Virus record (IMG/VR): IMGVR_UViG_3300008954_000048
Coordinates: 1,662 to 65,661 of that record
Direction: 5' to 3' (one strand)
Source of the DNA: a virus
Lineage: Duplodnaviria; Caudoviricetes
Length of the DNA: 64,000 nt
Every line of letters begins with the position of its first letter. The stretch's first letter is position 1. Of the stretch, positions 3,197 through 61,937 are shown piece by piece. The notes below the pieces were generated by a model that was given only the letters and a program-made list of their open reading frames with translations, had not been told where the DNA came from and ran no database searches. A program made the translations under genes and the position numbers.

Positions 3197-3274
3197 TGGT
3201 CGGCTGGCCGGGACTCGAACCCGGAACCCTCTGTTTATGAGACAGACGCTCTAACCTGATTGAGCTACCAGCCG
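3197..3274 (-). tRNA. tRNA-CAT (elongator Met or Ile2), CCA encoded
   Basis: Cloverleaf CGGCTGG...TCTGT CT CAT AA ACAGA...GGTTCGAGT...CCAGCCG ACCA; 1-72 paired, so not an initiator. Confidence 0.93.
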
Positions 3275-3472
3275 GTACATTAAACATCTTCGTAGCAATC
3301 CAATGCATGAAAATATTTGTAACTTTTTCCTTTTTTGACTACCATGTCTGGTTCTTTCATGAAGTCCTCAAGAATTAACTTCACAGTCTCTCTCTCAATT
3401 CCTGTCTCTTTAGAGATTCGATCAATCGTCTTCCACTCCAGAAATCCCACTGTGCTATTAACGGCATGCCAC

Positions 3473-3754
3473 TCATCCTCGTTCCATCTCTTCTTCTTTT
3501 CTTTTCTCACCTGGGGTAATCCTTTCAAAGATCTCAATAGGCAGTTTCGTAACGATAGTGCCATCAATAACCACATCAATGCAAGGCTTAAGTTCTGTCA
3601 TCGCAGCCTTACCGATAGCATTATAATGTGTAATGGTCCCCTCATATATACCACGGATAACAAGGGCGGGGCTCTTCCATAAATCCCGAATTACCCCATC
3701 ATCTCTTAGATAATCAGGAAAATCGATTCTTCTTACTAAATCACCTGGCTTCAT
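3473..3754 (-). CDS. Small SH3/KOW-like hypothetical protein (MKPGDLV family)
   Basis: N-terminal KPGDLV, RBS AGAGG. Confidence 0.55.
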   Translation of the reverse strand: MKPGDLVRRIDFPDYLRDDGVIRDLWKSPALVIRGIYEGTITHYNAIGKAAMTELKPCIDVVIDGTIVTKLPIEIFERITPGEKRKEEEMERG

Positions 3755-3785
3755 GTTGCCCTCTTTCTATTAAACTATACCAATG

Positions 3786-4001
3786 CTAGATACGCTTGTA
3801 TTTTTTACCACGGCGGATAACTTCATTATTACGAGCCATTGACTCTAAGATCGAACGTGCGATACCTGGTTTAACGTCGGCATCATTAGCAATCTGATCA
3901 ATCGTTGCCCACATTTCAAATGACAACGCATTATCGATGGCCATCTGCTCACCATCAGTCCATCCACTCTTCTTACTTCGTTTGGCCATTATTCTCCTCA
4001 T
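3786..4001 (-). CDS. Small winged-helix-like protein
   Basis: ATIDQIANDADVKPGIARSILESM pattern; resembles the C-terminal part of ORF 3280..3579. Confidence 0.45.
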   Translation of the reverse strand: MRRIMAKRSKKSGWTDGEQMAIDNALSFEMWATIDQIANDADVKPGIARSILESMARNNEVIRRGKKYKRI

Positions 4002-4602
4002 TATGGCGAAAGTCTTTAATCAGTTTTTTCTTTAGGACACTGTGTAGTCCTGGATTTACTTCAAATGCATGTGGCATAATTTTATGCCTGATATGATTTC
4101 TCATGTGCTTTGTATCTTGGTTAGATGGATCATTAATGAAAGGAACATCATTCCTGTCAATCCATTCTAGAAGCTCCTGTTTGGTTGTTGCAAGGAATGG
4201 CCTGATAACATCTCCATTCCTATATGGAATTAGCTTAGAATGGCCGCGTAGTGAGGAAAACATCCACCACTCAGCAACATCATCTAAGTGATGACCCATA
4301 ATAATTGGGCCAACTAGCTCTGTGAAAAATTCATATCTAGAATTACGCCAGAACTCTTCTTGAGATTGACGAGGCTCGCGCATTGAGGTTACTCGTCCAC
4401 AAATATACGGAATCTTATTATCGGAACAATAACGCTCAACAAATGTCTCTGCCTCCATGCCATGCTCTGTACCATGATCAAAATATGCGACACGTACTCG
4501 GCGCTTGCCGTTGTTTAGAAAATGAAGTGCAGCCATAGAGTCCGAACCCCCAGAACAGGCGATTGTAATATCGTCTGGAATTTTTCCTAATAAGTGAATC
4601 AT
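3973..4602 (-). CDS. tilS: tRNA(Ile)-lysidine synthetase, catalytic domain only
   Basis: PP-loop ACSGGSDS, FDHG, RNSRY, GHHLDD, IRPFL, DPSN..RNHIR. Confidence 0.88.
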   Translation of the reverse strand: MIHLLGKIPDDITIACSGGSDSMAALHFLNNGKRRVRVAYFDHGTEHGMEAETFVERYCSDNKIPYICGRVTSMREPRQSQEEFWRNSRYEFFTELVGPIIMGHHLDDVAEWWMFSSLRGHSKLIPYRNGDVIRPFLATTKQELLEWIDRNDVPFINDPSNQDTKHMRNHIRHKIMPHAFEVNPGLHSVLKKKLIKDFRHNEENNGQTK

Positions 4603-4627
4603 TAACTGTGTCTTTACCGTTTAAGGA

Positions 4628-4703
4628 TGGTGAGCCGCCCGGGAATCGAACCCGGAACCTGCGGATTAAAAGTCCGATGCTCTACCTGTTGAGCTAACGG
4701 CCC
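4628..4703 (-). tRNA. tRNA-Lys(TTT)
   Basis: GGGCCGT...TCGGA CT TTT AA TCCGC...GGTTCGATT...ACCA. Confidence 0.93.
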
Positions 4704-4801
4704 GTACGTCATCCTATACGTCCTTGAACCGTTTATATTTCATTTGGTGAGTCATTAGCATTATGATATAACTTTACCAACTCGAACTATGTTGTACATA
4801 A

Positions 4802-5284
4802 CTAACTATCGAAACAAACTACAAATCTGATGCAGTCTTCAATCGTACCACCTGGTAACATTAGGTCTTTTACTGTGCCATACCAGTCCCATGCAGTATC
4901 CTCAGTTTCATTTCGCCAACTTACAATAAGCTGTGTAACATTGGTGTCTAGCTTGGGAATAATCTCATATCCATGCACGTCGAACTCTTCATTATAAGAT
5001 CCAATTGAGCGCCTATTCATTTCGTGACATGCCTCCTGAACCTCGGATGGTGTTAACCATGTATGACTATGTAAGTCAACTCCCCAGTCATCTACCATGT
5101 CCCTATAGGCACCGGATGCATCATCTGGTACACCACGATTAGCTGTACCAATATCCGGCCCACCCCGTACAGCAGCAATAACACCGAACCAGTCATAATT
5201 TCTACCAGGGTTGATTGTATCAATTGCCATCCAGTTTCCAGTATGGTCTTTGACTTCCCAAAACCCGTGGATATCACATCCCAT
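4802..5284 (-). CDS. Conserved phage hypothetical protein (MGCDIH family)
   Basis: MGCDIH..E, RNYxxFG, HSHTWLT, C-terminal FDS. Confidence 0.7.
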   Translation of the reverse strand: MGCDIHGFWEVKDHTGNWMAIDTINPGRNYDWFGVIAAVRGGPDIGTANRGVPDDASGAYRDMVDDWGVDLHSHTWLTPSEVQEACHEMNRRSIGSYNEEFDVHGYEIIPKLDTNVTQLIVSWRNETEDTAWDWYGTVKDLMLPGGTIEDCIRFVVCFDS

Positions 5285-5292
5285 TTCTTTTC

Positions 5293-5826
5293 CTATTCAT
5301 CAAAATTTTGTACTTCATATGACTTAAGATATGGAAGCCATTTTGGGTGTATGCGTTTTCTTTCAACTGTATGAAAGATATAAGGTGAAGGTTGCATTGG
5401 GGGCTTTAACGGGTGCATGTGGGCTTCATATGGTAACATGCTTCCCTTTTTTTGATTGCACTTTCTGCAGCTGGTAACCACATTTTCCCAAACTTTAGGG
5501 CCACCCCTTGAGCGAGGTGTTACATGGTCTATTGTAAGCTCGCTATTTGCAAATACGTCACCACAATACTGACATGTATATCGGTCTCGCCAAAATACAT
5601 TTTTCCTATTGCACCTCAAACGAAGCCGGCCCTTACGTACATATCGTTTAAGTGCAATTACACTTGGAACAGGAAATTTGCGGCTGGCCGAATGATAAAA
5701 TGCATCATCATAAACTTCTACAATATTTGCTCTGCCCATATATACCATGCAAAATGCTTCAAATCCAGTAACAATTTGAATGGGCCTATATGAACTATCT
5801 AGCTTTAAAGTTTTCCATTCTTCCAC
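5293..5826 (-). CDS. HNH endonuclease
   Basis: RDRYTCQYCG, TIDHVTP, NVVTSCRKCNQKK. Confidence 0.9.
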   Translation of the reverse strand: MEEWKTLKLDSSYRPIQIVTGFEAFCMVYMGRANIVEVYDDAFYHSASRKFPVPSVIALKRYVRKGRLRLRCNRKNVFWRDRYTCQYCGDVFANSELTIDHVTPRSRGGPKVWENVVTSCRKCNQKKGSMLPYEAHMHPLKPPMQPSPYIFHTVERKRIHPKWLPYLKSYEVQNFDE

Positions 5827-5875
5827 AGCAGCCTCTTACCTTAAGTAGTTAGCCATGAAAGAATGGCCGAGAAAC

Positions 5876-6109
5876 TTATAAACTAACGTTTTTAGAAACA
5901 GCGTTGATAAGATTATCAAGCTCTTCATCAGAACTATCAAGCTTTGACTTAATCTTAACAATCCTGACAGCAGCCTGAATACTCTTTACATCTAGTTTGT
6001 CTTTGTACTCTGCGACTAGTAGCTTCCTATCTTCTGACAAAAGCTTCTGTTCACCTTCAATCCTAAATAGTTTTGTAACGAATTCATCCAATGTTGTTTT
6101 TTCTGACAT
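5876..6109 (-). CDS. DsbA/GapR-like small dsDNA-binding protein
   Basis: IEGEQKLLSEDRK..YKDKLDVKSIQAAVRIVK helical pattern. Confidence 0.55.
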   Translation of the reverse strand: MSEKTTLDEFVTKLFRIEGEQKLLSEDRKLLVAEYKDKLDVKSIQAAVRIVKIKSKLDSSDEELDNLINAVSKNVSL

Positions 6110-6138
6110 TTACTTTCTCCTGTTAGTAAGTTGTTGGT

Positions 6139-6224
6139 TGGTGGCCGAGGTGGGACTCGAACCCACACGAGCTAAGCTCAACGGATTTTGAGTCCGTCGT
6201 GTCTACCAATTCCACCACTCGGCC
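6139..6224 (-). tRNA. tRNA-Leu(CAA), long variable arm
   Basis: GGCCGAG...ACGGA CT CAA AA TCCGT...GGTTCGAGT...ACCA. Confidence 0.93.
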
Positions 6225-8947: not shown

Positions 8948-9712
8948 TTATCTCTTTTGCCGGCGCTTACCAATGCGATCTGCAGAAAGGTCCAACATTT
9001 GGCCATTAACAATCGTAGGATAAACGAGGTTTCCGCGGTCGTTGACGAATGGTGCTTCGGCGATTAGGGCAACATCACCCATATAATACCGAAGGTCGCC
9101 GACGTTGTGGCGGGGGGTCTCAAGCTCTTCAAAAACCTTCTTATATGCCTTGAGCAACTTGTTACATGCCCACTCATCGATCTGAACATTTTCTGGATTT
9201 GCCAGCCAATCCAATACTCGCTTGTGAGACTTTGCAGTGCCCGGGCGATGTTGCCAATAGTAACCATTCTTACCACTGCCGATCCGAATTGCAATTTCCA
9301 TCTTGGCCTTGAGCTCAGCATCCGGAGCCCAAACTCCGTTGTTTCGGATATCGGCAGCCTCTGCCAACATATTGTTCAACCAAGTCTGCTGCTTTTCGCT
9401 GAGGTTCCAGCCGCGGCGAACCTTTCCAGCAAAGTCGGTGAGAATGTCTCGCCGGCGCTCCATGCCCTTGAGGTTAGCAGCAGCCATAATCTCATTGACC
9501 TGGGTTTCGTTCTTCGCGACCGGAACGCCTTCCTCAATAATGGAATCGAGCCAAGCTCGACGCTTTGGGCTAAGGCCTCGATTTGTATTGAGGCGCCATT
9601 CCATATCCTTGGCGAATCGACAATTTCGATCTTCACCCAGGCCTGCGGCTTCAAAAGCCTTGATTAGTTCCTGGGTTTGTGATAGCCGAAGTTCGCGGGA
9701 TTTGCGAGCCAT
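8948..9712 (-). CDS. Early hypothetical protein with internal repeat
   Basis: LSPKRRAWLDSI / LSEKQQTWLNNM repeats; RBS GGAG before ATG 9712; first gene behind a class I promoter. Confidence 0.7.
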   Translation of the reverse strand: MARKSRELRLSQTQELIKAFEAAGLGEDRNCRFAKDMEWRLNTNRGLSPKRRAWLDSIIEEGVPVAKNETQVNEIMAAANLKGMERRRDILTDFAGKVRRGWNLSEKQQTWLNNMLAEAADIRNNGVWAPDAELKAKMEIAIRIGSGKNGYYWQHRPGTAKSHKRVLDWLANPENVQIDEWACNKLLKAYKKVFEELETPRHNVGDLRYYMGDVALIAEAPFVNDRGNLVYPTIVNGQMLDLSADRIGKRRQKR

Positions 9713-9759
9713 GTTTTCTCTCCTATTACTTGGTAGGGCCATTCCCCACCATCAAGTAT

Positions 9760-9789
9760 ATTATACCCCATGGTCGACTTTTTTGCACG
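9760..9789 (-). promoter_or_regulatory. Class I promoter GTGCAA-N17-TATAAT
   Basis: Exact 17-bp spacing; same motif recurs at least 8 times in the window. Confidence 0.75.
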
Positions 9790-9819
9790 AAAATACAGCA
9801 AAAACCTCACAAACTACAT

Positions 9820-9851
9820 AAAAAAAGCCTAACCAGATTAACCAGTTAGGC
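9820..9851 (-). terminator. Intrinsic terminator
   Basis: GCCTAACTGG-ttaat-CTGGTTAGGC hairpin followed by a T7 tract on minus strand. Confidence 0.8.
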
Positions 9852-9864
9852 CTTGAAAATGAAA

Positions 9865-10019
9865 GTGAGGAGGAACCAATTACCATCCTGATATCGGGAG
9901 TCCCTAAACCTGACATTATGAGCACTAGTAACTCATCTACTAACGTCTTCCCCTTGGGGGAAAGGGGTCAGAGGCTTTTACTCAACCAACCGCAGGTATG
10001 ACAACCAATTCCTCCTCAC
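9865..10019 (-). ncRNA. 155-nt structured RNA (rod with branched tip; possibly 6S-like)
   Basis: Perfect 11-bp terminal inverted repeat GTGAGGAGGAA/TTCCTCCTCAC, extended by 11 bp with 6 G-U pairs valid only on minus strand, plus nested stems; no ORF; terminator downstream. Confidence 0.7.
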
Positions 10020-10025
10020 AAATAA

Positions 10026-11264
10026 CTATACCCTGTCATTCCGAAAATGGATAAAAGTTGGAAAACGAAGTGACCCGTCAGGGGTTACTTCCTGATATCG
10101 GACTTCGATTAATCGACCAATATAGTCATCTGGATTATTCCAGATCTCCTGGCGAAGCTCGTCATCCATGCCACTTCCAACACCCACCTCAACGCCGTTA
10201 TAGTCAACAATCAGCGTTCCACACATATCTCGGAATTTACCTTTTCCTTCTTCTATCCGAAGTACTTCAACATCAGCATCATGAAATGACTTTACCTTCA
10301 TGACCTCATACCCCCTGCCGCGGCGATACAGGGCCTCAAGATCTTTTACCATGACCCCCTCATAACCCTCTTCCACAAACTGATGATGGTACATATCAAT
10401 CTGGCCCTGGCATGCCAAAATAGTATGACGTGGAACTAGCAGAAGATATTTCGATTGACGCCCACCCGCGTAGAAGCGTGCTTCGAGCAATGCGCGTCGT
10501 TCCCGGCATGTTTCTCCAGGAAGGTCCTCAACCCAATCTTCAAGAGACATAAAATCGAACAAAGCTAGATATGAATTGGTAACATCCACATCATCTTTAC
10601 GATATGCTTGACGCATGAGAGCTACAAAATCTTCCCCCATTATTTCGCCATCATAGAACCCATCGCCTAATCGTGATAACTCATATCCAATTGTGTCATC
10701 AAAATTTGTAATCTGCTTTCCAGATCTGGCATACAGAGTTGCTGCCCCATCCTTAACAACAGCACAACATCGAATTCCATCTAGTTTCGGTTCAAGAGCA
10801 ATTACCTCTTGATTCTTAATCCTCTTTAGTTCGAACTTTTGTGCAAGCTGTACATCAAAAGTAGGAATCAAGCCAGGGAATATACTATTGATTGTCTTTG
10901 TCGATGCCCCAATCGCCAGGTGCTTCTTAAGAACCTTCCGCATCCACTTCTCTTCTCTAGGAAATGCCGATGATAAAGCGGTTTCCATAATTGATATTGC
11001 AGCATTACCGGTGTGATAACGTTCTGAGCAAAGCTTTGCACAATCTAAGAATAGGTTCCACCTATCTTCCTCTTCATAGCCACACTTTCGATTATCAAAT
11101 GCTAGCTTCGGAATCTTTACAATATTGAATACAATGTACGGATCATTTGCATACTTCAATACACGTTGCAGTAGCATATTGTCAGAATGTTCCTGTAAGA
11201 TTTGCTTCTTAGCATTTGAACCAGAAACATCTTTTACGGCTTGTAGGATATCAGATACTAACAT
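10026..11264 (-). CDS. lig: ATP-dependent DNA ligase
   Basis: EPKLDGIR, YDGEI, EGVMVK, MKVK, SLRFP. Confidence 0.93.
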   Translation of the reverse strand: MLVSDILQAVKDVSGSNAKKQILQEHSDNMLLQRVLKYANDPYIVFNIVKIPKLAFDNRKCGYEEEDRWNLFLDCAKLCSERYHTGNAAISIMETALSSAFPREEKWMRKVLKKHLAIGASTKTINSIFPGLIPTFDVQLAQKFELKRIKNQEVIALEPKLDGIRCCAVVKDGAATLYARSGKQITNFDDTIGYELSRLGDGFYDGEIMGEDFVALMRQAYRKDDVDVTNSYLALFDFMSLEDWVEDLPGETCRERRALLEARFYAGGRQSKYLLLVPRHTILACQGQIDMYHHQFVEEGYEGVMVKDLEALYRRGRGYEVMKVKSFHDADVEVLRIEEGKGKFRDMCGTLIVDYNGVEVGVGSGMDDELRQEIWNNPDDYIGRLIEVRYQEVTPDGSLRFPTFIHFRNDRV

Positions 11265-14227: not shown

Positions 14228-14304
<77 letters not shown>

Positions 14305-14309
14305 ATAAA

Positions 14310-14540
14310 TCAAAATGGATTATCCTCACAATATTGAATCAATTCCATAATATAGTCAAATGCTTCATCTGGTAAGTCCTTATATGAAACACCTCCGGCG
14401 GCATCCTTAATAACCTTGGGAATATGTGCATATGCATTTCTTCCCTGGGGATGTTTGGGATGATCTGGAAGCTTGCCCTTTAAGGCTTTAGCGGCTTCCA
14501 AGATCCTTTCCCTTATTTTCCCCTGGTTATCAGGTGACAC
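14310..14540 (-). CDS. Conserved hypothetical protein
   Basis: LPDHPKHPQGRNAYAHI motif; fills the gap between tRNAs. Confidence 0.6.
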   Translation of the reverse strand: MSPDNQGKIRERILEAAKALKGKLPDHPKHPQGRNAYAHIPKVIKDAAGGVSYKDLPDEAFDYIMELIQYCEDNPF

Positions 14541-14718
14541 CTAAGCATTCCTATAATTGTTATAGCAAAATGCTGCAAACAATGTGCAAATACCACAAAT
14601 TAGATAATTTCCAGTCATTGCTGTCTGTACAGCAAATGTAGCATTTGCAGCACAACACGCTAAACTTAAATTTCGCCTATTGAATATTTTTCTCATTATG
14701 TACTCCTCATGTTGAATG

Positions 14719-14791
14719 TGGAGCCAGGGGGGATCGAACCCCCGACCTTCTGACTGCCAGTCAGATGCTCTCCCAGCTGAGCTATAGCCCC
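14719..14791 (-). tRNA. tRNA-Ala(GGC), no encoded CCA
   Basis: GGGGCTA acceptor with G3-U70; TCTGA CT GGC AG TCAGA. Confidence 0.93.
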
Positions 14792-14801
14792 ATGAAAAAA
14801 A

Positions 14802-14878
14802 TGGTCGGGGCAGCAGGATTTGAACCTGCGACCCTCTGCTCCCAAAGCAGATGCGCTGCCAGACTGCGCTATGCCCCG
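14802..14878 (-). tRNA. tRNA-Pro(TGG)
   Basis: CGGGGCA...TCTGC TT TGG GA GCAGA...ACCA. Confidence 0.93.
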
Positions 14879-14883
14879 ATATG

Positions 14884-14955
14884 AGCGGGTGACGGGACTC
14901 GAACCCGTAGCCTTCTGATTGGCAACCAGATGCTCTACCATTGAGCTACACCCGC
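14884..14955 (-). tRNA. tRNA-Gly(GCC), no encoded CCA
   Basis: GCGGGTG...TCTGG TT GCC AA TCAGA...CACCCGC T. Confidence 0.93.
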
Positions 14956-14963
14956 GGCCCATC

Positions 14964-15569
14964 TCATCGTCTATTTCTAAACGCTTTAATGACGCCATTA
15001 TATCCTTCTTTGCGATATATCTTCCGAACCTCTCGCCTATACGTTCTCGATTTCGAAACCCCATCAATGTATACATCACAAAGCGCCCACCTATTCGGGC
15101 CACGATGGAAAACAAAATCAGCATCTACCTCTGCATCACTGTGGAGTGACTTTATAGTTGTACTAACTTTTGCAAACCTATGGCCTCGAAGCACCTTATA
15201 TTGTGTACCCCCGTTGAAGTATACTGTAAACTTTGCACTGGGTGAAAACAGGTAGCCATATCTACTGATGGCATCTCGCTGCAAAAGTTTTTTGAACTTC
15301 ACCTGCTGGGCCTTTGTCAACTTATCCCAATTAGGTCGAAAAATTGATTCTGCATATGTTTCCCAATCTATGTTGTTATCCAAAAACACCTGTGCTGACT
15401 TGGGCGGCCTCCTGGAACTATCAAGTATCTTATCTCGATACTTTTCAACGCCCGCTGGATTAAATGCTTGCACAGTTGTATATGCTTTGTACTGTGTATT
15501 CAGCATAATTTGTGGATCTCCCCCAGTGAACAAATATGCACTGGCAACTGCTACTACTAAAGACTTCAT
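14964..15569 (-). CDS. mlaC: MlaC/Ttg2D-family periplasmic phospholipid-binding protein
   Basis: Signal peptide; IDWETYAESIF..NWDKLTKAQQVKF and WALCDVYIDGVS..TYR hallmarks. Confidence 0.75.
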   Translation of the reverse strand: MKSLVVAVASAYLFTGGDPQIMLNTQYKAYTTVQAFNPAGVEKYRDKILDSSRRPPKSAQVFLDNNIDWETYAESIFRPNWDKLTKAQQVKFKKLLQRDAISRYGYLFSPSAKFTVYFNGGTQYKVLRGHRFAKVSTTIKSLHSDAEVDADFVFHRGPNRWALCDVYIDGVSKSRTYRREVRKIYRKEGYNGVIKAFRNRR

Positions 15570-15589
15570 CTAACTACCTCTTGTAAAAG

Positions 15590-15665
15590 TGGAGCCACCG
15601 ATAGGGTTCGAACCTACGACCTGCTGATTACAAATCAGCTGCTCTACCAACTGAGCTACGGTGGC
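15590..15665 (-). tRNA. tRNA-Thr(TGT)
   Basis: GCCACCG...GCTGA TT TGT AA TCAGC...CGGTGGC TCCA. Confidence 0.93.
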
Positions 15666-20953: not shown

Positions 20954-20998
20954 GTATTCTCCAGGTTGCGGTAGGATCCATTCCCCACCATCAATTAT

Positions 20999-21028
20999 AT
21001 TATACCCTAGTATGAGAATATTTGCACG
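20999..21028 (-). promoter_or_regulatory. Class I promoter GTGCAA-N17-TATAAT with conserved leader hairpin
   Basis: 17-bp spacer; leader nearly identical to 9733-9765. Confidence 0.75.
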
Positions 21029-24540: not shown

Positions 24541-25347
24541 CTAAACCTCCACTTTGGCATTGATAAGACTATCAACCGCACGTTTCTTAATTGAACTTAG
24601 TTCCCGGTTGGTTACAGGAAAACTACTATGATCTGTAGGGTCCTCAGTTATTCCAAACCGAAGGCGCAAGATCTTTTCTTCCCTATCAGAAAGAGAATGA
24701 AGGGCTTGGCGTACAACCTCTGTAATCTTTTCTTGATCTAACTTTTCGCCTGGATGCTTTGCGTCAGTATCAGGAATAACGTCAGCTAACTTCCTGCCAG
24801 TTGACGGACCAGAGCTTCCACCGTAACTAATTGAACTATCTAGCGAGATTGGTGTTCCCGCAGCATCAATAATGGCACGCATCGATTCTAAGGATACACC
24901 AAGAAGCTCAGCTAACTCCGCTTGTGAAGGAGGAGCTCCGAACTCCTCTTCAAACTCAGCTGCAAACTTCTTCATTTTCCATAGCATACCTTTTGCATGG
25001 GATGGTAGCCTGATTGAGTTTGAGTTGGATGCAATATGACGCATCACCGCTTGCTTAATCCACCAACAACCATATGTAGAGAACTTAAAGCCCCTACGCC
25101 AGTCGAACCGATCAACGGCTTTCATCAAACCAATATTGGCTTCCTGGATCAAATCCTCAAGTGGACAGCCTCTATTTTGATATTTCTTTGCGATGCTAAT
25201 TGCTAGCCGAATATTGGCTGCAATCATATGGTCTCGGGCTTGCTTATCACCCTTTTCAATTCGTTTCGAAAGAGAAACCTCTTCCTCACGTGTTAGCAAT
25301 TTTGTTTTACCAACGTCCTTAAAGAACGTCGAGAGTGTATCACTCAT
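24541..25347 (-). CDS. Sigma-70 family RNA polymerase sigma factor (regions 1.2-4)
   Basis: LLTREEE, ANIRLAISIAKKY, DLIQEANIGLMKAVDRFD..RGFKFSTYGCWWIKQA, LSDREEKILRLRFG. Confidence 0.93.
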   Translation of the reverse strand: MSDTLSTFFKDVGKTKLLTREEEVSLSKRIEKGDKQARDHMIAANIRLAISIAKKYQNRGCPLEDLIQEANIGLMKAVDRFDWRRGFKFSTYGCWWIKQAVMRHIASNSNSIRLPSHAKGMLWKMKKFAAEFEEEFGAPPSQAELAELLGVSLESMRAIIDAAGTPISLDSSISYGGSSGPSTGRKLADVIPDTDAKHPGEKLDQEKITEVVRQALHSLSDREEKILRLRFGITEDPTDHSSFPVTNRELSSIKKRAVDSLINAKVEV

Positions 25348-26548: not shown

Positions 26549-26578
26549 ATAATACCATACATGGGAAACTTTTGCACG
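26549..26578 (-). promoter_or_regulatory. Class I promoter GTGCAA-N17-TATTAT
   Basis: 17-bp spacer; upstream of 26309..26518. Confidence 0.6.
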
Positions 26579-27295: not shown

Positions 27296-28942
27296 CTATG
27301 ACATTATCAATGTATTATCAGGACCTGGGTCTTCTTCCCCAACATCCTCAATCATGGCGCAGCCTACGGATAATAAATTACACGCTGCTGACGATGCATG
27401 TTCCAATGAAGACCTAACAACCTTGAGTGGATCAATAATACCAGCCTCCAGCATATCAACATACTCACCGGTAGAGGCATCATATCCCTTATTATGATCT
27501 TTTGAGCGGGCCACCTTTTCTAAAACAACCTCAGGTGCACCGCCAGAATTCCGAACAATCTGCATCAGTGGAGCGCTGCATGCCTTACGTACAACATCGA
27601 TTCCTACCTGAACCCCCACGCCGTATTCTTTCTTGTTCATCTTAAGGCTCTCTAGATGACGCGCTGCCCTAACCAATGCAACACCCCCACCGAACAATAA
27701 ACCTTCTTCTACAGCTGCCTGTGTAGCATGTAAGGCATCGTCGACCCGGTCTTTACGTTCCAGTAATTCAACCTCAGTTGCACCACCAACCCTAAGTATC
27801 GCAACTCCACCAGCTAACCTTGCTAGACGCCTAGTAATTGCAGCTTGATCTGGTACTGACAATGTCGGGTCCCTTAATACTTTCCTTAATTCATCGGCAC
27901 GGTGGTCAATTTTCTCTGCATCTCCAGCACAATCGATGAATGTAGTATAGCCCTTTCCAACAATAACTTTACGACATGTACCTAATTGCGTAAGGTCAAT
28001 ATCCTTAATATCATCCTCAGAAGCCATGCTCAATACTTCACACCCTAAAATTATGCCTAAATCTCCTAAGGCACCAACCCTCGACTCACCAAACTCTGGG
28101 GCCCGAATGGCACATATGTTTAATGTACCCTTTACACGGTTAAGCACCATCCCATGAAGAGCCTCGCCATCCACATCATCTGCAACTATTAATATCGAGC
28201 GTTGTGAGCCATGTATCTTTTCGAGTATTGGTAAAATATCATTCAATGATGTAATTTTTCTATTTAGCAAAAGGATATAGGGATTGTCCAATACTGCAGC
28301 CATTTTGTCTTGATCTGTAATAAAATACGGAGAAAGATAACCTCTATTAATCTCTGTTCCTTCAACTACATCAAGTGTTGTCTTAAACCCCTTTGCTTCC
28401 TCAACAGCAATGACACCATCCCTGCCAACTTCTTTCATAGCCCTACATAAAAGCTCACCAATTGTACGATCACCATTGGCAGAAATTGTACCTACCTGAA
28501 TTATTTCCTCATCACTGGTTACTGGTACTGCAATCTGTTTTAAGTACTGTACGACCTCTTCGGTTGCTATGTTTATTCCCCTACAGACCTCCGTTGCAGA
28601 ATATCCAGCTGCTAACATCATTAACCCATCATTAAAAATGGCCTGAGATAGAACTGTCGCTGCGGTTGTACCATCACCCGCTACCTCAGCTGTCCTGCTT
28701 GCAGCTTCCTTTACCATCTGTACACCAAGATTCAAAAACCTGGCCCGTAGGTTTATAGCCTTAGCTACGGTCACACCGTCTTTTGTCAAGTGTGGCACCT
28801 GGCCGGGGCGCTCAATTACAACATTTTGCCCACGTGGGCCCATAGTAATTTTTACCGCATTAGCTAAGACATCAACACCTTCTAGAAGTTGTTCTCTAGA
28901 TTTCGAGCCAAAAACTATCTCCTTATAAGAATCAGTAGTCAT
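27296..28942 (-). CDS. groEL: Chaperonin GroEL
   Basis: TMGPRG, TKDGVTVA, AGDGTT, GGVA, DPLKVVR. Confidence 0.97.
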   Translation of the reverse strand: MTTDSYKEIVFGSKSREQLLEGVDVLANAVKITMGPRGQNVVIERPGQVPHLTKDGVTVAKAINLRARFLNLGVQMVKEAASRTAEVAGDGTTAATVLSQAIFNDGLMMLAAGYSATEVCRGINIATEEVVQYLKQIAVPVTSDEEIIQVGTISANGDRTIGELLCRAMKEVGRDGVIAVEEAKGFKTTLDVVEGTEINRGYLSPYFITDQDKMAAVLDNPYILLLNRKITSLNDILPILEKIHGSQRSILIVADDVDGEALHGMVLNRVKGTLNICAIRAPEFGESRVGALGDLGIILGCEVLSMASEDDIKDIDLTQLGTCRKVIVGKGYTTFIDCAGDAEKIDHRADELRKVLRDPTLSVPDQAAITRRLARLAGGVAILRVGGATEVELLERKDRVDDALHATQAAVEEGLLFGGGVALVRAARHLESLKMNKKEYGVGVQVGIDVVRKACSAPLMQIVRNSGGAPEVVLEKVARSKDHNKGYDASTGEYVDMLEAGIIDPLKVVRSSLEHASSAACNLLSVGCAMIEDVGEEDPGPDNTLIMS

Positions 28943-58337: not shown

Positions 58338-61300
58338 CTAGCTACTTAACACCTTCAGCTTATGCATCTTTGTTGAGCACCCAAATTCATTTTTACTTAC
58401 CTCTGCAACACAGACAGAGTATAGGGGAAGGGGGGTTTCTCCATCCCATCCCCAACAGAACATTCGAGTTGAACCAGCGAGTCCGGCGGCAGTGAGAAGT
58501 AAATATGGCCGGCGGTTTTTTGTTAGCTTCGGTTTTGCATCGACAACAACAAACCAATATAGATCTTGCTCTTCAGCTTCATCAATAGGACGAATATTTC
58601 TCTCTTCAAGTTTTTCCTGAAGCTCATCAGGAACTAGCATCGCGGCATTGAAGTTACCCAGGAGCTCAATGGTATTTTGTGCCATCTCACGACGGGTCCA
58701 CTCTGCCATATCCTGAGTATCGATTACAGCCTCATAAAAAGCGTTCTTTCCCTTAAATGGTTCTTTCTTCGTAGATTTCTTAATGTCATTATTGCGATCG
58801 ATTAATACTTCATGGACTTGCCTCCAGGAAGAAAATTGTTTTCCCTCCCCCACGACGTCCATGGATCCTAATGCACGGATCCTAATCAGGCTAGCAAGAG
58901 CCCGCTTATTGAATTTAGAATGTCTCCACCCACCCTCTTCATTCCATAGCATATCTTCAATATTCTCATATGGGCGGTTCGCAACGATTTCATCAATCGC
59001 GGACTCACCAATACCCTTACATGAGAGAAATGATGGCATGAACTTCTTACCCTCTAGAATAGTCCATGTTTTATCAGCATGATTAACGTCAAGTGGGACA
59101 ATCTTATAACCCAGCTTTTTGATTTCGCTGTAAGCTTTCTTTCGCTTATCTGGAGTATTAGACATTGCCTCGAGGTATGCACAGAGCCACTCTTCCTCAT
59201 AGTGATGCATCAACCAGGCACAGTAATAAGATACAATAGCATAACTGACAGCATGGGACTTATTGAACCCATACCCTGAGAAGAAGAGGATCTTTTCGTA
59301 TAGGTCATCTGCCAAGCTTTCACGCAGGCCATTGGATACGCAACCACTGACGAATCGCTCCTTAAGTTCTTGGGCTTGTTTCTTCATGGCCGCGGCCTTC
59401 GAAGCCGACCTCTTCATAATGGTACGGCGGATCATATCACAGTCTTCCTTGGGGAACCCTGCAACGACATGGCATAGTTCCATGACTTGCTCTTGGAAAA
59501 TAATTGTACCGTATGTGCTTTTGAGCACCTTCTTGATGAGTGGATGCTCATAGTCAACATCCTCGGGATTCGCCTTCGCACCCAAATAGATCTTATGCAC
59601 ATCCGCGGAGAGCGGCCCGGGACGATAGATACTGGTCAACGTTGCAATATCCACAATACTACGGGGGTTACCCTTTTCAAAGAATCGCTGGGCTCCCTTC
59701 TGAGTCGCTTGGAAGATACCTCCCCAGCGCCCAGAATGGTAGACCTGCTCATAGACATCCTGGTCATCAAAATTGATCACCTTTGGATCCATGTGGGTAT
59801 CAAACCAAGTACGTACATCATCAAACGTTGGCTTCTCTACACCCTCATGACGTTGCATGATCAACTCGATACTGCGCTCGATCATACGGAGTGTCTCCAA
59901 GCCAAGGAGATCGAATTTAATCCAGCCGAACTCTTCCAGGTGCTTATAATGCATCCCTTCGACCCATGGGGTTTGCACCTCTCCCTTGGCCATGATAACA
60001 GGCATGCGCTGTTCAATGTTTTCAGAAACAATAACCCCACCCGCATGTCGGCCGAGACTCTTATTCTGCTTGAACAGGATCTCAATTGGTTCAGCTACCT
60101 CTGGGTATTTCTCAATAAACTCCCGGAAGACCTTACTATGTTGGACCGCATCCTCGTATAGCAAGACAAATAGGTTCTTATCAGTCCCCTTCTTGAAGAC
60201 AGCCCGCTTCACATCGTTCTCTACAGGACCAAGTACCCTATTCACCTCGTCAAACGGAATTCCGTAGAATCTCGAGATATCCTTCACCAATGATTTGAGT
60301 TTGAACGTGTTATAGTTCGAAATGGGTACAATATTCTCTTTGCCAAACTCCCTCTTCATCAGATCAATCAGGAGGTCTCGGTCGGCCACGTCACTATCAA
60401 TATCTGGGTATTCCTCTCGATGCAACGATAAAAACCGTTCAAAGAGGAGCCCGTATTCAATGGGGTCCACATCTGTAATATATAACACGTAGTTAACAAG
60501 CGATCCAGCACCACTACCACGACCAGGACCTACCAGCATATGCTTACGTGCAATATCCCAGATGGCCTTCATGGTCAGGAAGTACTTAGAGAACTTCTTT
60601 TCCTTAATTACGCCAAGTTCTGTCTTAAGGCGGGTGATATACTCGGGATTAGTATGGAGACCACGTCTTACTAGCCCTTCTTTACACGCCTCGAGAAGTG
60701 CCTTGTCTTCCGTAAGCCCTTGTGGTACTACGTAGTTTGGTAGCTTCACCGACTTATCCGGGTGGATGTCACCAATCTCGTGATGCACAATATCATGGGT
60801 GCGCTCAATGGCATCGAACACTAGTTCATCATCATACCAATCGCATCCCTCTTTTACCTCATTATATGTGTCCCATACCTGCTCGGCGTTCTTTGGGTAC
60901 AACTCACACTTGAGGTCCTCTCGGCTTTGGGGAAGGTTCTCGGGGTTGAACTCCTTATAATTGAGCCAACCCAGCTTGCGGTAGATTTCACGCTCTTTCC
61001 AGTGATCGGGGTGCGAGTAGTGAGAATCGGTGGTGACCACTAGCTGGTCATCAAGATTCTCGTTACGAGCAAATTCCATAATAGCTCTATTAACCAAGTT
61101 TTGTGCTGGAAGCTTATTGAACTGCAGCTCTAACTTTACATTCCCTCGGCCAACTGAATCTACTAAGCTTCCATATGCATTACCTACACTCGTTTGTACC
61201 TTGGCCATAAGTGAAGGGTCATCCAATAGTTTTGCATTGAGGTCATTAAACTCAACCTGTTGAAGATGGCGAAAAACCTCATAACATAGTGGGCCGCCTA

Positions 61301-61937
61301 AGCATGCGCTAGATACCATTAGATGGCCACCCTCGGCCGCCTCTTTAAGCATCTTATAGTCTACACGAGGAAACCTATAGAAGCCCTCCTTGTACCCCCT
61401 AGACACTAAATGAAACAACCTTTGTAGGCCAATGGATGTCTTTGGAAGGACCACCAGATGATGCCTGCGCTTCACAGGATCATAAAACTTACCTGATTTG
61501 GTTTCCTCTTCATTCTCAACAGTAACGCCAGCATCAACCTTGGTAATATCAATAGTTTCATCATCTACGTCAGTAATTGCAAGAAGAGGTGTTACTAGGG
61601 CTTCACGTTGTGCGCGCAGTGTATGTAGTGCATCCTTGTCACCTTTTTTGGCAGCCTTCTGGATCTCATAGTCTAACTTCCAAGCATCAAGATCCGGGTG
61701 AACATACATTTCGCAACCTGGAATAAACTTAAAATCTGCCCCTGCCTTATTCAGCTTCTCATTATAAAGCCAAGCATGAGCAAACGAATTCATATGACCA
61801 TGGTTAGTAAGACACCACGAGTCCATGCCATTTTCACGAACAAAGTCAATATGCTCCTGAGGATATCCCAATCCGTCGAATGTTGAAAACCCATCATGGG
61901 CATGGAGTGATGTAAACTTGCTTGGCTTTTTTGACAT
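58338..61937 (-). CDS. dnaE: DNA polymerase III alpha subunit
   Basis: PHP LHAH..TNHG, GPGRGSGAGS, FERFL, PDIDSD, HAGG, KFDLLGL, FNKSHA. Confidence 0.97.
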   Translation of the reverse strand: MSKKPSKFTSLHAHDGFSTFDGLGYPQEHIDFVRENGMDSWCLTNHGHMNSFAHAWLYNEKLNKAGADFKFIPGCEMYVHPDLDAWKLDYEIQKAAKKGDKDALHTLRAQREALVTPLLAITDVDDETIDITKVDAGVTVENEEETKSGKFYDPVKRRHHLVVLPKTSIGLQRLFHLVSRGYKEGFYRFPRVDYKMLKEAAEGGHLMVSSACLGGPLCYEVFRHLQQVEFNDLNAKLLDDPSLMAKVQTSVGNAYGSLVDSVGRGNVKLELQFNKLPAQNLVNRAIMEFARNENLDDQLVVTTDSHYSHPDHWKEREIYRKLGWLNYKEFNPENLPQSREDLKCELYPKNAEQVWDTYNEVKEGCDWYDDELVFDAIERTHDIVHHEIGDIHPDKSVKLPNYVVPQGLTEDKALLEACKEGLVRRGLHTNPEYITRLKTELGVIKEKKFSKYFLTMKAIWDIARKHMLVGPGRGSGAGSLVNYVLYITDVDPIEYGLLFERFLSLHREEYPDIDSDVADRDLLIDLMKREFGKENIVPISNYNTFKLKSLVKDISRFYGIPFDEVNRVLGPVENDVKRAVFKKGTDKNLFVLLYEDAVQHSKVFREFIEKYPEVAEPIEILFKQNKSLGRHAGGVIVSENIEQRMPVIMAKGEVQTPWVEGMHYKHLEEFGWIKFDLLGLETLRMIERSIELIMQRHEGVEKPTFDDVRTWFDTHMDPKVINFDDQDVYEQVYHSGRWGGIFQATQKGAQRFFEKGNPRSIVDIATLTSIYRPGPLSADVHKIYLGAKANPEDVDYEHPLIKKVLKSTYGTIIFQEQVMELCHVVAGFPKEDCDMIRRTIMKRSASKAAAMKKQAQELKERFVSGCVSNGLRESLADDLYEKILFFSGYGFNKSHAVSYAIVSYYCAWLMHHYEEEWLCAYLEAMSNTPDKRKKAYSEIKKLGYKIVPLDVNHADKTWTILEGKKFMPSFLSCKGIGESAIDEIVANRPYENIEDMLWNEEGGWRHSKFNKRALASLIRIRALGSMDVVGEGKQFSSWRQVHEVLIDRNNDIKKSTKKEPFKGKNAFYEAVIDTQDMAEWTRREMAQNTIELLGNFNAAMLVPDELQEKLEERNIRPIDEAEEQDLYWFVVVDAKPKLTKNRRPYLLLTAAGLAGSTRMFCWGWDGETPLPLYSVCVAEVSKNEFGCSTKMHKLKVLSS

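Follow-up and report, generated by a model that had tools for sequence, protein, structure and literature searches.

The window analysed here is a 64-kb stretch of a 65.7-kb IMG/VR record (IMGVR_UViG_3300008954_000048) that is 21% complete by CheckV and thus represents a fragment of a jumbo phage genome. On its minus strand, a gene for an ATP-dependent DNA ligase is followed by a 155-nucleotide (nt) element whose two ends pair with each other. Our best reading is that this element is a new structured RNA domain located at the 3' end of the ligase transcription unit in a small clade of marine jumbo phages. Structured small RNAs at the 3' ends of phage genes are a known kind; the architecture described below is new and is not catalogued in Rfam 15. 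Besides the window phage, one related marine phage lineage carries the element, and contigs from seawater metagenomes hold variants of it. We consider it very probable that the element is a real RNA structure maintained by selection.

The minus strand of the element folds with a predicted minimum free energy (MFE) of -64.6 kcal/mol. None of 200 dinucleotide shuffles folded as well (mean -44.1 kcal/mol, standard deviation 4.35; z -4.71). The plus strand reaches -46.4 kcal/mol (z -2.33), and 3 of 200 shuffles were as good. This asymmetry arises because G-U pairs turn into A-C mismatches on the opposite strand, and it bears out the strand assignment made in an earlier sequence-only reading of this DNA. 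When both strands of the whole 64 kb were scanned in 160-nt sliding windows with correction for G+C content, positions 9861-10020 of the minus strand ranked first among 6,386 windows by structure, with a GC-adjusted residual z of -4.42 compared to -3.12 for the runner-up.

The sequence-only reading had described the folded minus-strand RNA from its letters, and this observation is confirmed. The closing stem (GUGAGGAGGAA/UUCCUCCUCAC), its continuation with six G-U pairs (UUGGUUGUCAU/AUGGUAAUUGG), the CCUG/CAGG pairing, and both tip hairpins are all found in the minus-strand sequence. The spacer between the ligase stop codon (10026-10028) and the first base of the element (10019) is 6 nt, as had been stated, and the CCUCCU motif noted in the 3' arm is present. 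One part of the description stood only in part: CUGAC/GUCAG, proposed to close the tip hairpins, is present as sequence but is not used by the MFE structure, the alternative lying at -62.0 kcal/mol, 2.6 above the MFE. The RNA is not a tRNA. ARAGORN identifies 8 tRNAs in the window, none of which lies at 9865-10019, and the Rfam tRNA matches are all elsewhere. The claim that the element holds no open reading frame (ORF) also agrees with comparison to a homologue on a metagenome contig designated L005, with which it has no open frame in common. The small open frames in the two copies are not alike; a start-codon-like GUG/AUG at position 1 opens frames of unequal length (13 versus 4 codons, counted by eye).

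The L005 element (L005:3753-3915) is the one syntenic homologue. It follows a ligase gene that is 75% identical to the window ligase; after it come the promoter motif and the downstream gene that also occur in the window, the latter 61% identical. The L005 copy folds at about -72.3 to -72.8 kcal/mol (z -9.65), and its antisense at -66.2 kcal/mol. Its MFE structure coincides with the centroid; the junction contains 4, 1, and 0 unpaired bases, with none on its 3' side, and no unpaired run exceeds 6 nt. Model R1, a covariance model made only from the L005 copy, recovered the window element from end to end with a score of 44.2 bits (E 1.7e-7) in 112 kb. The order on the minus strand of the window is ligase, 6-nt spacer, 155-nt element (10019-9865), 10-nt U-rich stretch, terminator-like hairpin, promoter-like motif, and next gene. 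The parts of this locus are listed below.

10026-11264, minus strand: ATP-dependent DNA ligase gene (Pfam PF01068 and PF14743), whose 3' end adjoins the element
10025-10030, minus strand: -10-like hexamer TATAGT, which overlaps the ligase stop codon and lies 5 nt before RNA position 1
9865-10019, minus strand: whole structured RNA, 155 nt, defined by its fold and rank and by the end-to-end match of model R1
9986-10019, minus strand: 5' arm of the basal rod P1 (RNA positions 1-34, with A23 bulged and a 2x2 loop at 28-29), which forms 31 base pairs (bp) with the 3' arm
9984-9985, minus strand: conserved UU bulge at the P1/P2 boundary (RNA positions 35-36), unpaired at the same place in both copies
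9980-9983, minus strand: 5' strand of P2 (GAGU, within a conserved UUGAGUA block), which pairs with ACUC at 9898-9901
9972-9977, minus strand: 5' strand of P3 (AAGCCU), which pairs with AGGUUU at 9906-9911; the corresponding helix in L005 is CCACCG/CGGUGG
9947-9967, minus strand: C-rich hairpin P4 (helix 4 of the alignment), with a conserved GACCCCU...CCCCC...GGGG block
9912-9947, minus strand: P5 (GACGU/AUGUC), an internal loop (U..UAG), and the P6 hairpin (AUGAGU-UACUAGU-GCUCAU)
9902-9905, minus strand: 3' side of a purine-rich asymmetric internal loop, AGGG (UUGAAA in L005)
9865-9897, minus strand: 3' arm of P1 (RNA positions 123-155), which includes CCUCCU; in helices 1-2, 9 pairs are changed on both sides
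9855-9864, minus strand: U-rich tail UUUCAUUUUC, immediately after the rod
9824-9854, minus strand: separate canonical terminator-like hairpin and T-run, with no counterpart in L005
9739-9789, minus strand: promoter-like motif of the next gene (CGTGCAAA-N15-GGTATAAT) and conserved leader TTGATGGTGGGGAATGG

The two copies share a common architecture. A 31-bp basal rod with the bulged A23 leads through the unpaired UU to a GAG/CUC helix embedded in the UUGAGUA block and then to a purine-rich loop present only on the 3' side. Above this loop lies the head, in which the 6-bp P3 opens into a three-way junction that carries the C-rich hairpin P4 and a P5-P6 arm interrupted by a loop ending in UAG. 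Within the rod, the uninterrupted duplex measures 22 bp in the window and 17 bp in L005. Under the shared structure, all non-Watson-Crick pairs of L005 are G-U pairs on the gene-sense strand; the window copy contains 8 G-U pairs and 3 mismatched pairs (GA, UU, and AG). Forcing the window copy into the L005-like pairing costs 5.2 kcal/mol relative to its MFE (-59.4 kcal/mol). Together with the alternative at -62.0 kcal/mol, this leaves the predicted junction of the window copy uncertain within about 5 kcal/mol.

The pairing has been maintained while the sequence changed. In an alignment fitted to the model, standard pairs fill 97.3% of 111 pair cells, and both sides have changed in 16 of the 61 pairs, compared to 0-2 in six slid controls. 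These double changes reach the head: P3 is fully paired with 3 of its 6 pairs changed on both sides, and P5 has 2 of 5 pairs so changed, its P5/P6 pairing in the window copy being predicted about 5 kcal/mol above the MFE. This alignment, A5, leans towards the structure, and two further alignments were used as checks. A sequence-only MAFFT alignment contains 9 double changes in 35 predicted pairs, and the RNAalifold consensus, which has 54 pairs and shows 16 double changes, agrees with this architecture. Between the two copies, 78 of 139 ungapped columns are identical (56%), and four-fold degenerate sites in the flanking genes are 44% and 29% identical, which indicates that the pairing survived near-saturating divergence.

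The family to which the two copies belong is small. Searches of 50,697 cultured-phage records by megablast and blastn with the window region and the L005 region gave no match, and the best cultured-phage ligase is only 36% identical to that of the window. Ligase searches returned three IMG/VR loci at 57-58% identity and eight metagenome loci. In L002, L003, L004, L007, and L008, the element is absent; after the ligase gene come a short spacer and then a different gene. Another contig, L049, does not differ from L005 in the 500 nt that were compared; it adds no independent sequence, so the family has two members. The homologue collection suggested by the sequence-only reading accordingly yielded one independent homologue with compensatory changes, while the element is missing from more distant relatives. 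Variants of it occur in seawater metagenome contigs from other studies (runs X5 and X6), with 54 differences over 9645-10018 and 6 over 9719-9966.

Model R1 revealed no second copy in the window or in ten related loci (L002-L005 and L007-L012; L006, which duplicates the contig L002, was left out of this search). A two-sequence model run with filters off likewise gave no further copy, and neither did searches of the 65.7-kb record, of three whole related viral records (G001-G003), and of a 4.9-Mb metagenome-assembled genome (MAG). This MAG, labelled Halobacteriovorax, is the bin into which the 48.8-kb contig carrying the L049 element was placed (G004:C16:44109-44271). The placement is either a hint of the host or a mis-binned phage contig. 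R1 found nothing in 150 other genomes of the MAG's order, the single match among 151 being the MAG itself. Pattern scans of IMG/VR gave 0 matches for the inverted-repeat termini with gap, 0 for the P4 hairpin, and 0 for UUGAGUA with the C-rich block. A scan for three conserved blocks gave 4 matches, all of which fold poorly and are ascribed to chance. The promoter-leader motif matched 30 IMG/VR loci, none with promoter context and most of them coding DGGDW-like matches. Six pattern matches arose in GTDB genome contigs; one is L049 and the other five are chance.

These distributions bear on whether the element acts as RNA at all. A DNA-level or selfish element, such as a MITE-like (miniature inverted-repeat transposable element) palindromic insertion, a cruciform, or a hairpin used in single-strand replication or recombination, would have no RNA role. 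The element carries an 11-bp perfect terminal inverted repeat, the antisense strand of L005 folds nearly as well as the sense strand (-66.2 versus -72.8 kcal/mol), and the element is absent from distant relatives and sits at a synteny break after the ligase gene, all of which would suit such an origin. However, it is single-copy in the record, the three related viral records, and the 4.9-Mb MAG, and compensatory changes extend to its apical helices; both points speak against a MITE-like insertion or a palindrome that acts only as DNA. Moreover, the two strands of the window copy differ by 18 kcal/mol owing to G-U pairs, whereas a double-stranded cruciform needs both arms paired, and the element lies inside a transcription unit, between stop codon and terminator. 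We regard a DNA-level explanation as very unlikely.

As an RNA, the element falls into no Rfam 15 family. A cmscan of the whole window at the gathering score gave 8 matches, all tRNA. Among the 4,227 families of Rfam 15, none is matched by either copy at the gathering score or at E<=10, the latter searches covering window positions 9700-10150 (451 nt) and L005:3700-3980 (281 nt). This negative result includes 6S, Y RNA, packaging RNA (pRNA), signal recognition particle (SRP) RNA, transfer-messenger RNA (tmRNA), ribozymes, and riboswitches. The weak matches that appeared (STnc410 over the terminator, E 0.18; CRISPR-DR57, E 3.8; mir-2774, E 4.6; GHRLOS, E 6.5) are attributable to chance. The Rfam comparison proposed in the sequence-only reading therefore returned no relevant family for either copy. 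Its fallback suggestion of a new noncoding RNA class agrees with an RNA that is strand-specific, non-coding, conserved through compensatory changes in a second phage lineage, and without an Rfam 15 family.

The preferred suggestion of that reading had been a 6S-like decoy that imitates an open promoter, traps the host sigma-70 holoenzyme, and thereby favours the phage sigma factor. The element resembles 6S RNA in its length (155-163 nt), in its long rod formed from paired ends, and in being non-coding. The premise of a phage with its own sigma factor also holds: a minus-strand gene at 24541-25347 encodes a sigma-70-family protein (PF04542 region 2 match at 25021-25227; 76 bits, above the cut-off), which is context and not evidence for 6S. 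6S sequences are poorly conserved, so the failure of both copies to match any 6S model at E<=10 is not decisive alone. The shape is a further difference. The passages on 6S RNA in PMC3274451 and PMC8545117 describe a large open central bubble between two rods that mimics an open promoter. No such bubble appears in the predicted folds of the two copies or in the RNAalifold consensus, and the second long terminal rod is replaced by a tight three-way junction with two hairpins. In addition, the conserved blocks lie in a bulge, a short helix, and the C-rich hairpin instead of in G-C pairs flanking a bubble. We find the 6S identity scarcely credible.

Section 12 of PMC8545117 describes an abundant RNA of about 100 nt in PhiKZ that is processed from the 3' untranslated region (UTR) of PHIKZ298 and was demonstrated by Northern analysis. 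Like the present element, this jumbo phage RNA comes right after a protein gene, has no mapped separate start, and ends in a stem that may be a Rho-independent terminator. As described there, the PhiKZ RNA consists of two simple stem-loops, the second being the possible terminator, whereas the element is a single 31-bp rod that encloses a three-way junction. The T4 RNAs rnaC and rnaD (species 1 and 2; NC_000866) are stable phage RNAs (119-139 nt) with no assigned function in a tRNA-rich region, and the window element is likewise situated between two clusters of tRNA genes. However, rnaC folds with a tRNA-like 3' arm and no end-to-end rod, and rnaD is not significantly structured (z -0.83). R1 run with filters off over positions 69000-74000 of NC_000866 gave a best score of 10.2 bits (E 0.16) that did not fall on rnaC or rnaD, and relatedness was rejected.

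Phi29-type pRNA is built from an end helix, a central three-way junction, and two hairpin arms with complementary loops for intermolecular pairing. The element shares the end helix, the junction, and the two arms and is of comparable length. Even so, neither copy matches Phage_pRNA at E<=10, the P4 and P6 loops of both copies lack complementarity to each other, and the element resides in a jumbo phage fragment with a DnaE-like polymerase rather than in a small protein-primed phage. Bacterial Y RNA gave no Rfam match, and no TROVE protein (PF05731) is encoded in the 65.7-kb record, a weak negative given that the record is 21% complete. With intrinsic terminators and RNase III sites of phage mRNAs, the element shares a GC-rich stem base followed by a U-rich tract, a location at the end of a transcription unit, and a duplex of RNase III length. 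What would be the "loop", however, is here a conserved domain of some 85-95 nt kept by compensatory change, and the window copy has an ordinary terminator besides. A search of full-text literature found no comparable element, with the alignments of the IMG/VR structured-RNA candidate catalogue (PMC10690425) outside the comparison. By the inclusion rules given in PMC10690425, candidates come from at least three unique IMG/VR regions and measure 29-151 nt, so the element is probably not in that catalogue.

The location of the element on the gene strand, between a stop codon and a terminator, implies from gene order that it is transcribed at least as the ligase 3' UTR. The intrinsic terminator announced by the sequence-only reading corresponds to a hairpin at 9854-9824 that resembles a terminator, having 13 pairs and then a T-run. 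The base of the rod itself (11 bp, GC-rich) is followed at once by UUUCAUUUU in the window and by UUUUUGUU in L005, where UUUUU-G-UU follows the rod directly. From the ligase gene of L005 to the promoter that comes next, a pattern scan detected no other terminator; the scanner accepts only loops of 3-8 nt and thus cannot call the element itself. The U-rich tract after the rod in both copies and the lack of another terminator in L005 lead us to read the rod as a terminator and a block to 3' exonucleases. Relative to L005:3916-3935, the window contains an insertion of about 60 nt after the rod (9800-9864). This insertion supplies the canonical terminator and a second GUGAGG, which resembles the first six bases of the rod.

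Signals for a separate start are weaker. L005 keeps TATATT at the same 5-nt spacing as the -10-like hexamer of the window although its ligase stop codon is 11 nt further off, and the 14 nt upstream of RNA position 1 are identical at 10 of 14 positions. These features suggest that a stand-alone transcript is possible. On this view, the element would be a base-pairing small RNA with its own promoter, whose C-rich P4 pairs with G-rich ribosome-binding sites of target mRNAs in the manner of staphylococcal RNAIII and RsaE, which use C-rich loops for this purpose. The fixed -10-like hexamer and upstream identity, the conserved CCCCC run in or beside the P4 loop, and the resemblance of the rod and U-tract to a small-RNA terminator are consistent with this model. 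However, a two-hexamer promoter scan called no promoter before the element in the window, where no acceptable -35 element exists, and the 9/12 match in L005 is no better than in shuffles (1 found versus 1.4 expected). Most of the C-run pairs with the GGGG in the same hairpin, and any targets are putative. We judge an independent small RNA of this type rather improbable.

One contig may bear on transcription. X9, a 223-nt contig from a library labelled metatranscriptomic but flagged "probably DNA", covers 9865-10087; it ends exactly at the last base of the rod and, at its other end, 68 nt into the ligase gene. If X9 derives from RNA, its extension into the ligase gene argues against a stand-alone small RNA. 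Its end at 9865 could be an RNA 3' end or an accident of assembly. X19, which is RNA, covers only 10353-10548 inside the ligase gene and is uninformative on the element.

In a purely cis-acting explanation, the element would be an RNase III processing or retroregulation site, and cleavage by host RNase III would set the 3' end and half-life of the ligase message. Intergenic RNase III sites of phage T7, which recur between genes, and the lambda sib site are parallels. Uninterrupted duplexes of 22 and 17 bp within the 31-bp rod fall in the length class that RNase III needs, the position at the gene end before the next promoter fits, and the X9 end at 9865 is a weak hint, coming from a library flagged "probably DNA". 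A signal made of duplex alone, however, leaves the selection on head helices 3-6 and on the sequence blocks unexplained. In contrast to recurring T7-type sites, model searches found one element only in the 64-kb window, and an inverted-repeat scan found no other rod among the 25 longest pairs of 89. The fragment contains no RNase III gene. On balance, we consider a purely cis-acting RNase III site unlikely.

We tentatively favour, as an explanation of the new RNA domain, a mechanism that combines a terminator, a stabiliser, and a functional head. Transcription from the ligase gene, judging by gene order and strand, would enter the element; a stand-alone transcript may also begin from the weak -10-like box that lies 5 nt upstream. 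The head would fold first, with its three-way junction, C-rich hairpin, and interrupted second hairpin. The 3' arm would then close the 31-bp rod, whose GC-rich base and U-rich tract would stop RNA polymerase and block 3' exonucleases. The product would be a stable RNA with paired ends, about 155-165 nt long and either free or joined to the ligase mRNA. Every helix in the head, like the blocks UUGAGUA, GACCCCU..CCCCC..GGGG, and U..UAG, is under selection, which is more than a terminator calls for, and from this we infer a partner for the head. This partner, most likely a protein, would confer a second trans-acting or regulatory role.

Several observations weigh against this interpretation. The comparison rests on two independent sequences, fewer than a formal covariation statistic needs, and alignment A5 was fitted to the structure. 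In the window copy, the predicted MFE structure and the shared architecture differ by 5.2 kcal/mol. Terminator stems do not usually have arms separated by about 130 nt, the U-tract of the window is interrupted (UUUCAUUUU), and a canonical terminator of its own lies 10 nt after the rod, so that the rod is not needed for termination in the window. The sole metatranscriptomic-labelled contig over the element, X9, is flagged "probably DNA". The partner that the head probably binds is putative. Finally, the absence of the element beside ligases of 51-60% identity indicates that it is not essential to the wider group.

It is tempting to speculate that the element is the founding member of a group of stable decoy RNAs in phages, in which a nuclease-proof rod displays a head that captures a host protein as a phage equipped with its own sigma factor takes over the cell, an idea to which we assign a low likelihood. 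Its target could be the host RNA polymerase holoenzyme, bound in a manner other than that of 6S RNA, a ribosome or RNA-decay factor, or a defence protein that senses structure. The P6 loops (window 9918-9936; L005:3837-3854) differ in sequence, but each is complementary to itself, through ACUAGU of the UACUAGU loop in the window and through UGCA in L005. By sequence, this self-complementarity might permit kissing-loop or extended-duplex homodimers, a post hoc observation with modest chance odds; the decoy might thus act as a kissing-loop dimer.

The genes around the element are all on the minus strand. The gene downstream encodes a protein of 254-264 amino acids without an assigned family. The ESM Atlas places this protein in unnamed viral clusters only, and its gene, used as bait singly and as a two-sequence alignment, found no relatives in IMG/VR. 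The promoter-like motif that precedes it is phage-specific (CGTGCAAA-N14/15-GGTAT(A/T)AT) and occurs three times in the window compared to 0.01 expected copies. Copies of the motif and of the leader that follows it are located as below.

9760-9789, minus strand: promoter-like motif before the gene downstream of the element
20999-21028, minus strand: promoter-like motif
26549-26578, minus strand: promoter-like motif
9739-9768 and 20978-21007, minus strand: conserved leader TTGATGGTGGGGA(A/T)TGG after the motif
L005:3920-3985: motif and leader together

The sigma factor that the phage itself encodes may recognise this motif. The 8 tRNA genes called by ARAGORN form two minus-strand clusters (3197-6224 and 14228-15665), one on each side of the element. 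Within the second cluster, a 413-nt gap between tRNA-Arg and tRNA-Ala (14305-14717, minus strand) also folds beyond its shuffles (z -4.88). This gap begins with a ribosome-binding-site-like GAGGAG followed by ATG and may hold small ORFs instead of or alongside a structured RNA. The window further encodes a GroEL-like chaperonin (27296-28942; PHROG 5725) and a DnaE-like DNA polymerase of 1,199 amino acids (58338-61937; PHROG 405). The majority of its remaining large ORFs have no PHROG match.

Jumbo phages make small RNAs derived from UTRs, but a defined fold is available for very few of these, and section 12 of PMC8545117 gives no function for any that it names. Against this background, the element offers an unusually clear architecture backed by selection, within the practical limits of an uncultured phage and a family of two members. 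Should it do no more than terminate and stabilise the transcript, it is unusually elaborate for that task and would be useful as a natural nuclease-resistant RNA scaffold. If the head does bind a host factor, the element would represent a new RNA-based way for a phage to manipulate its host.

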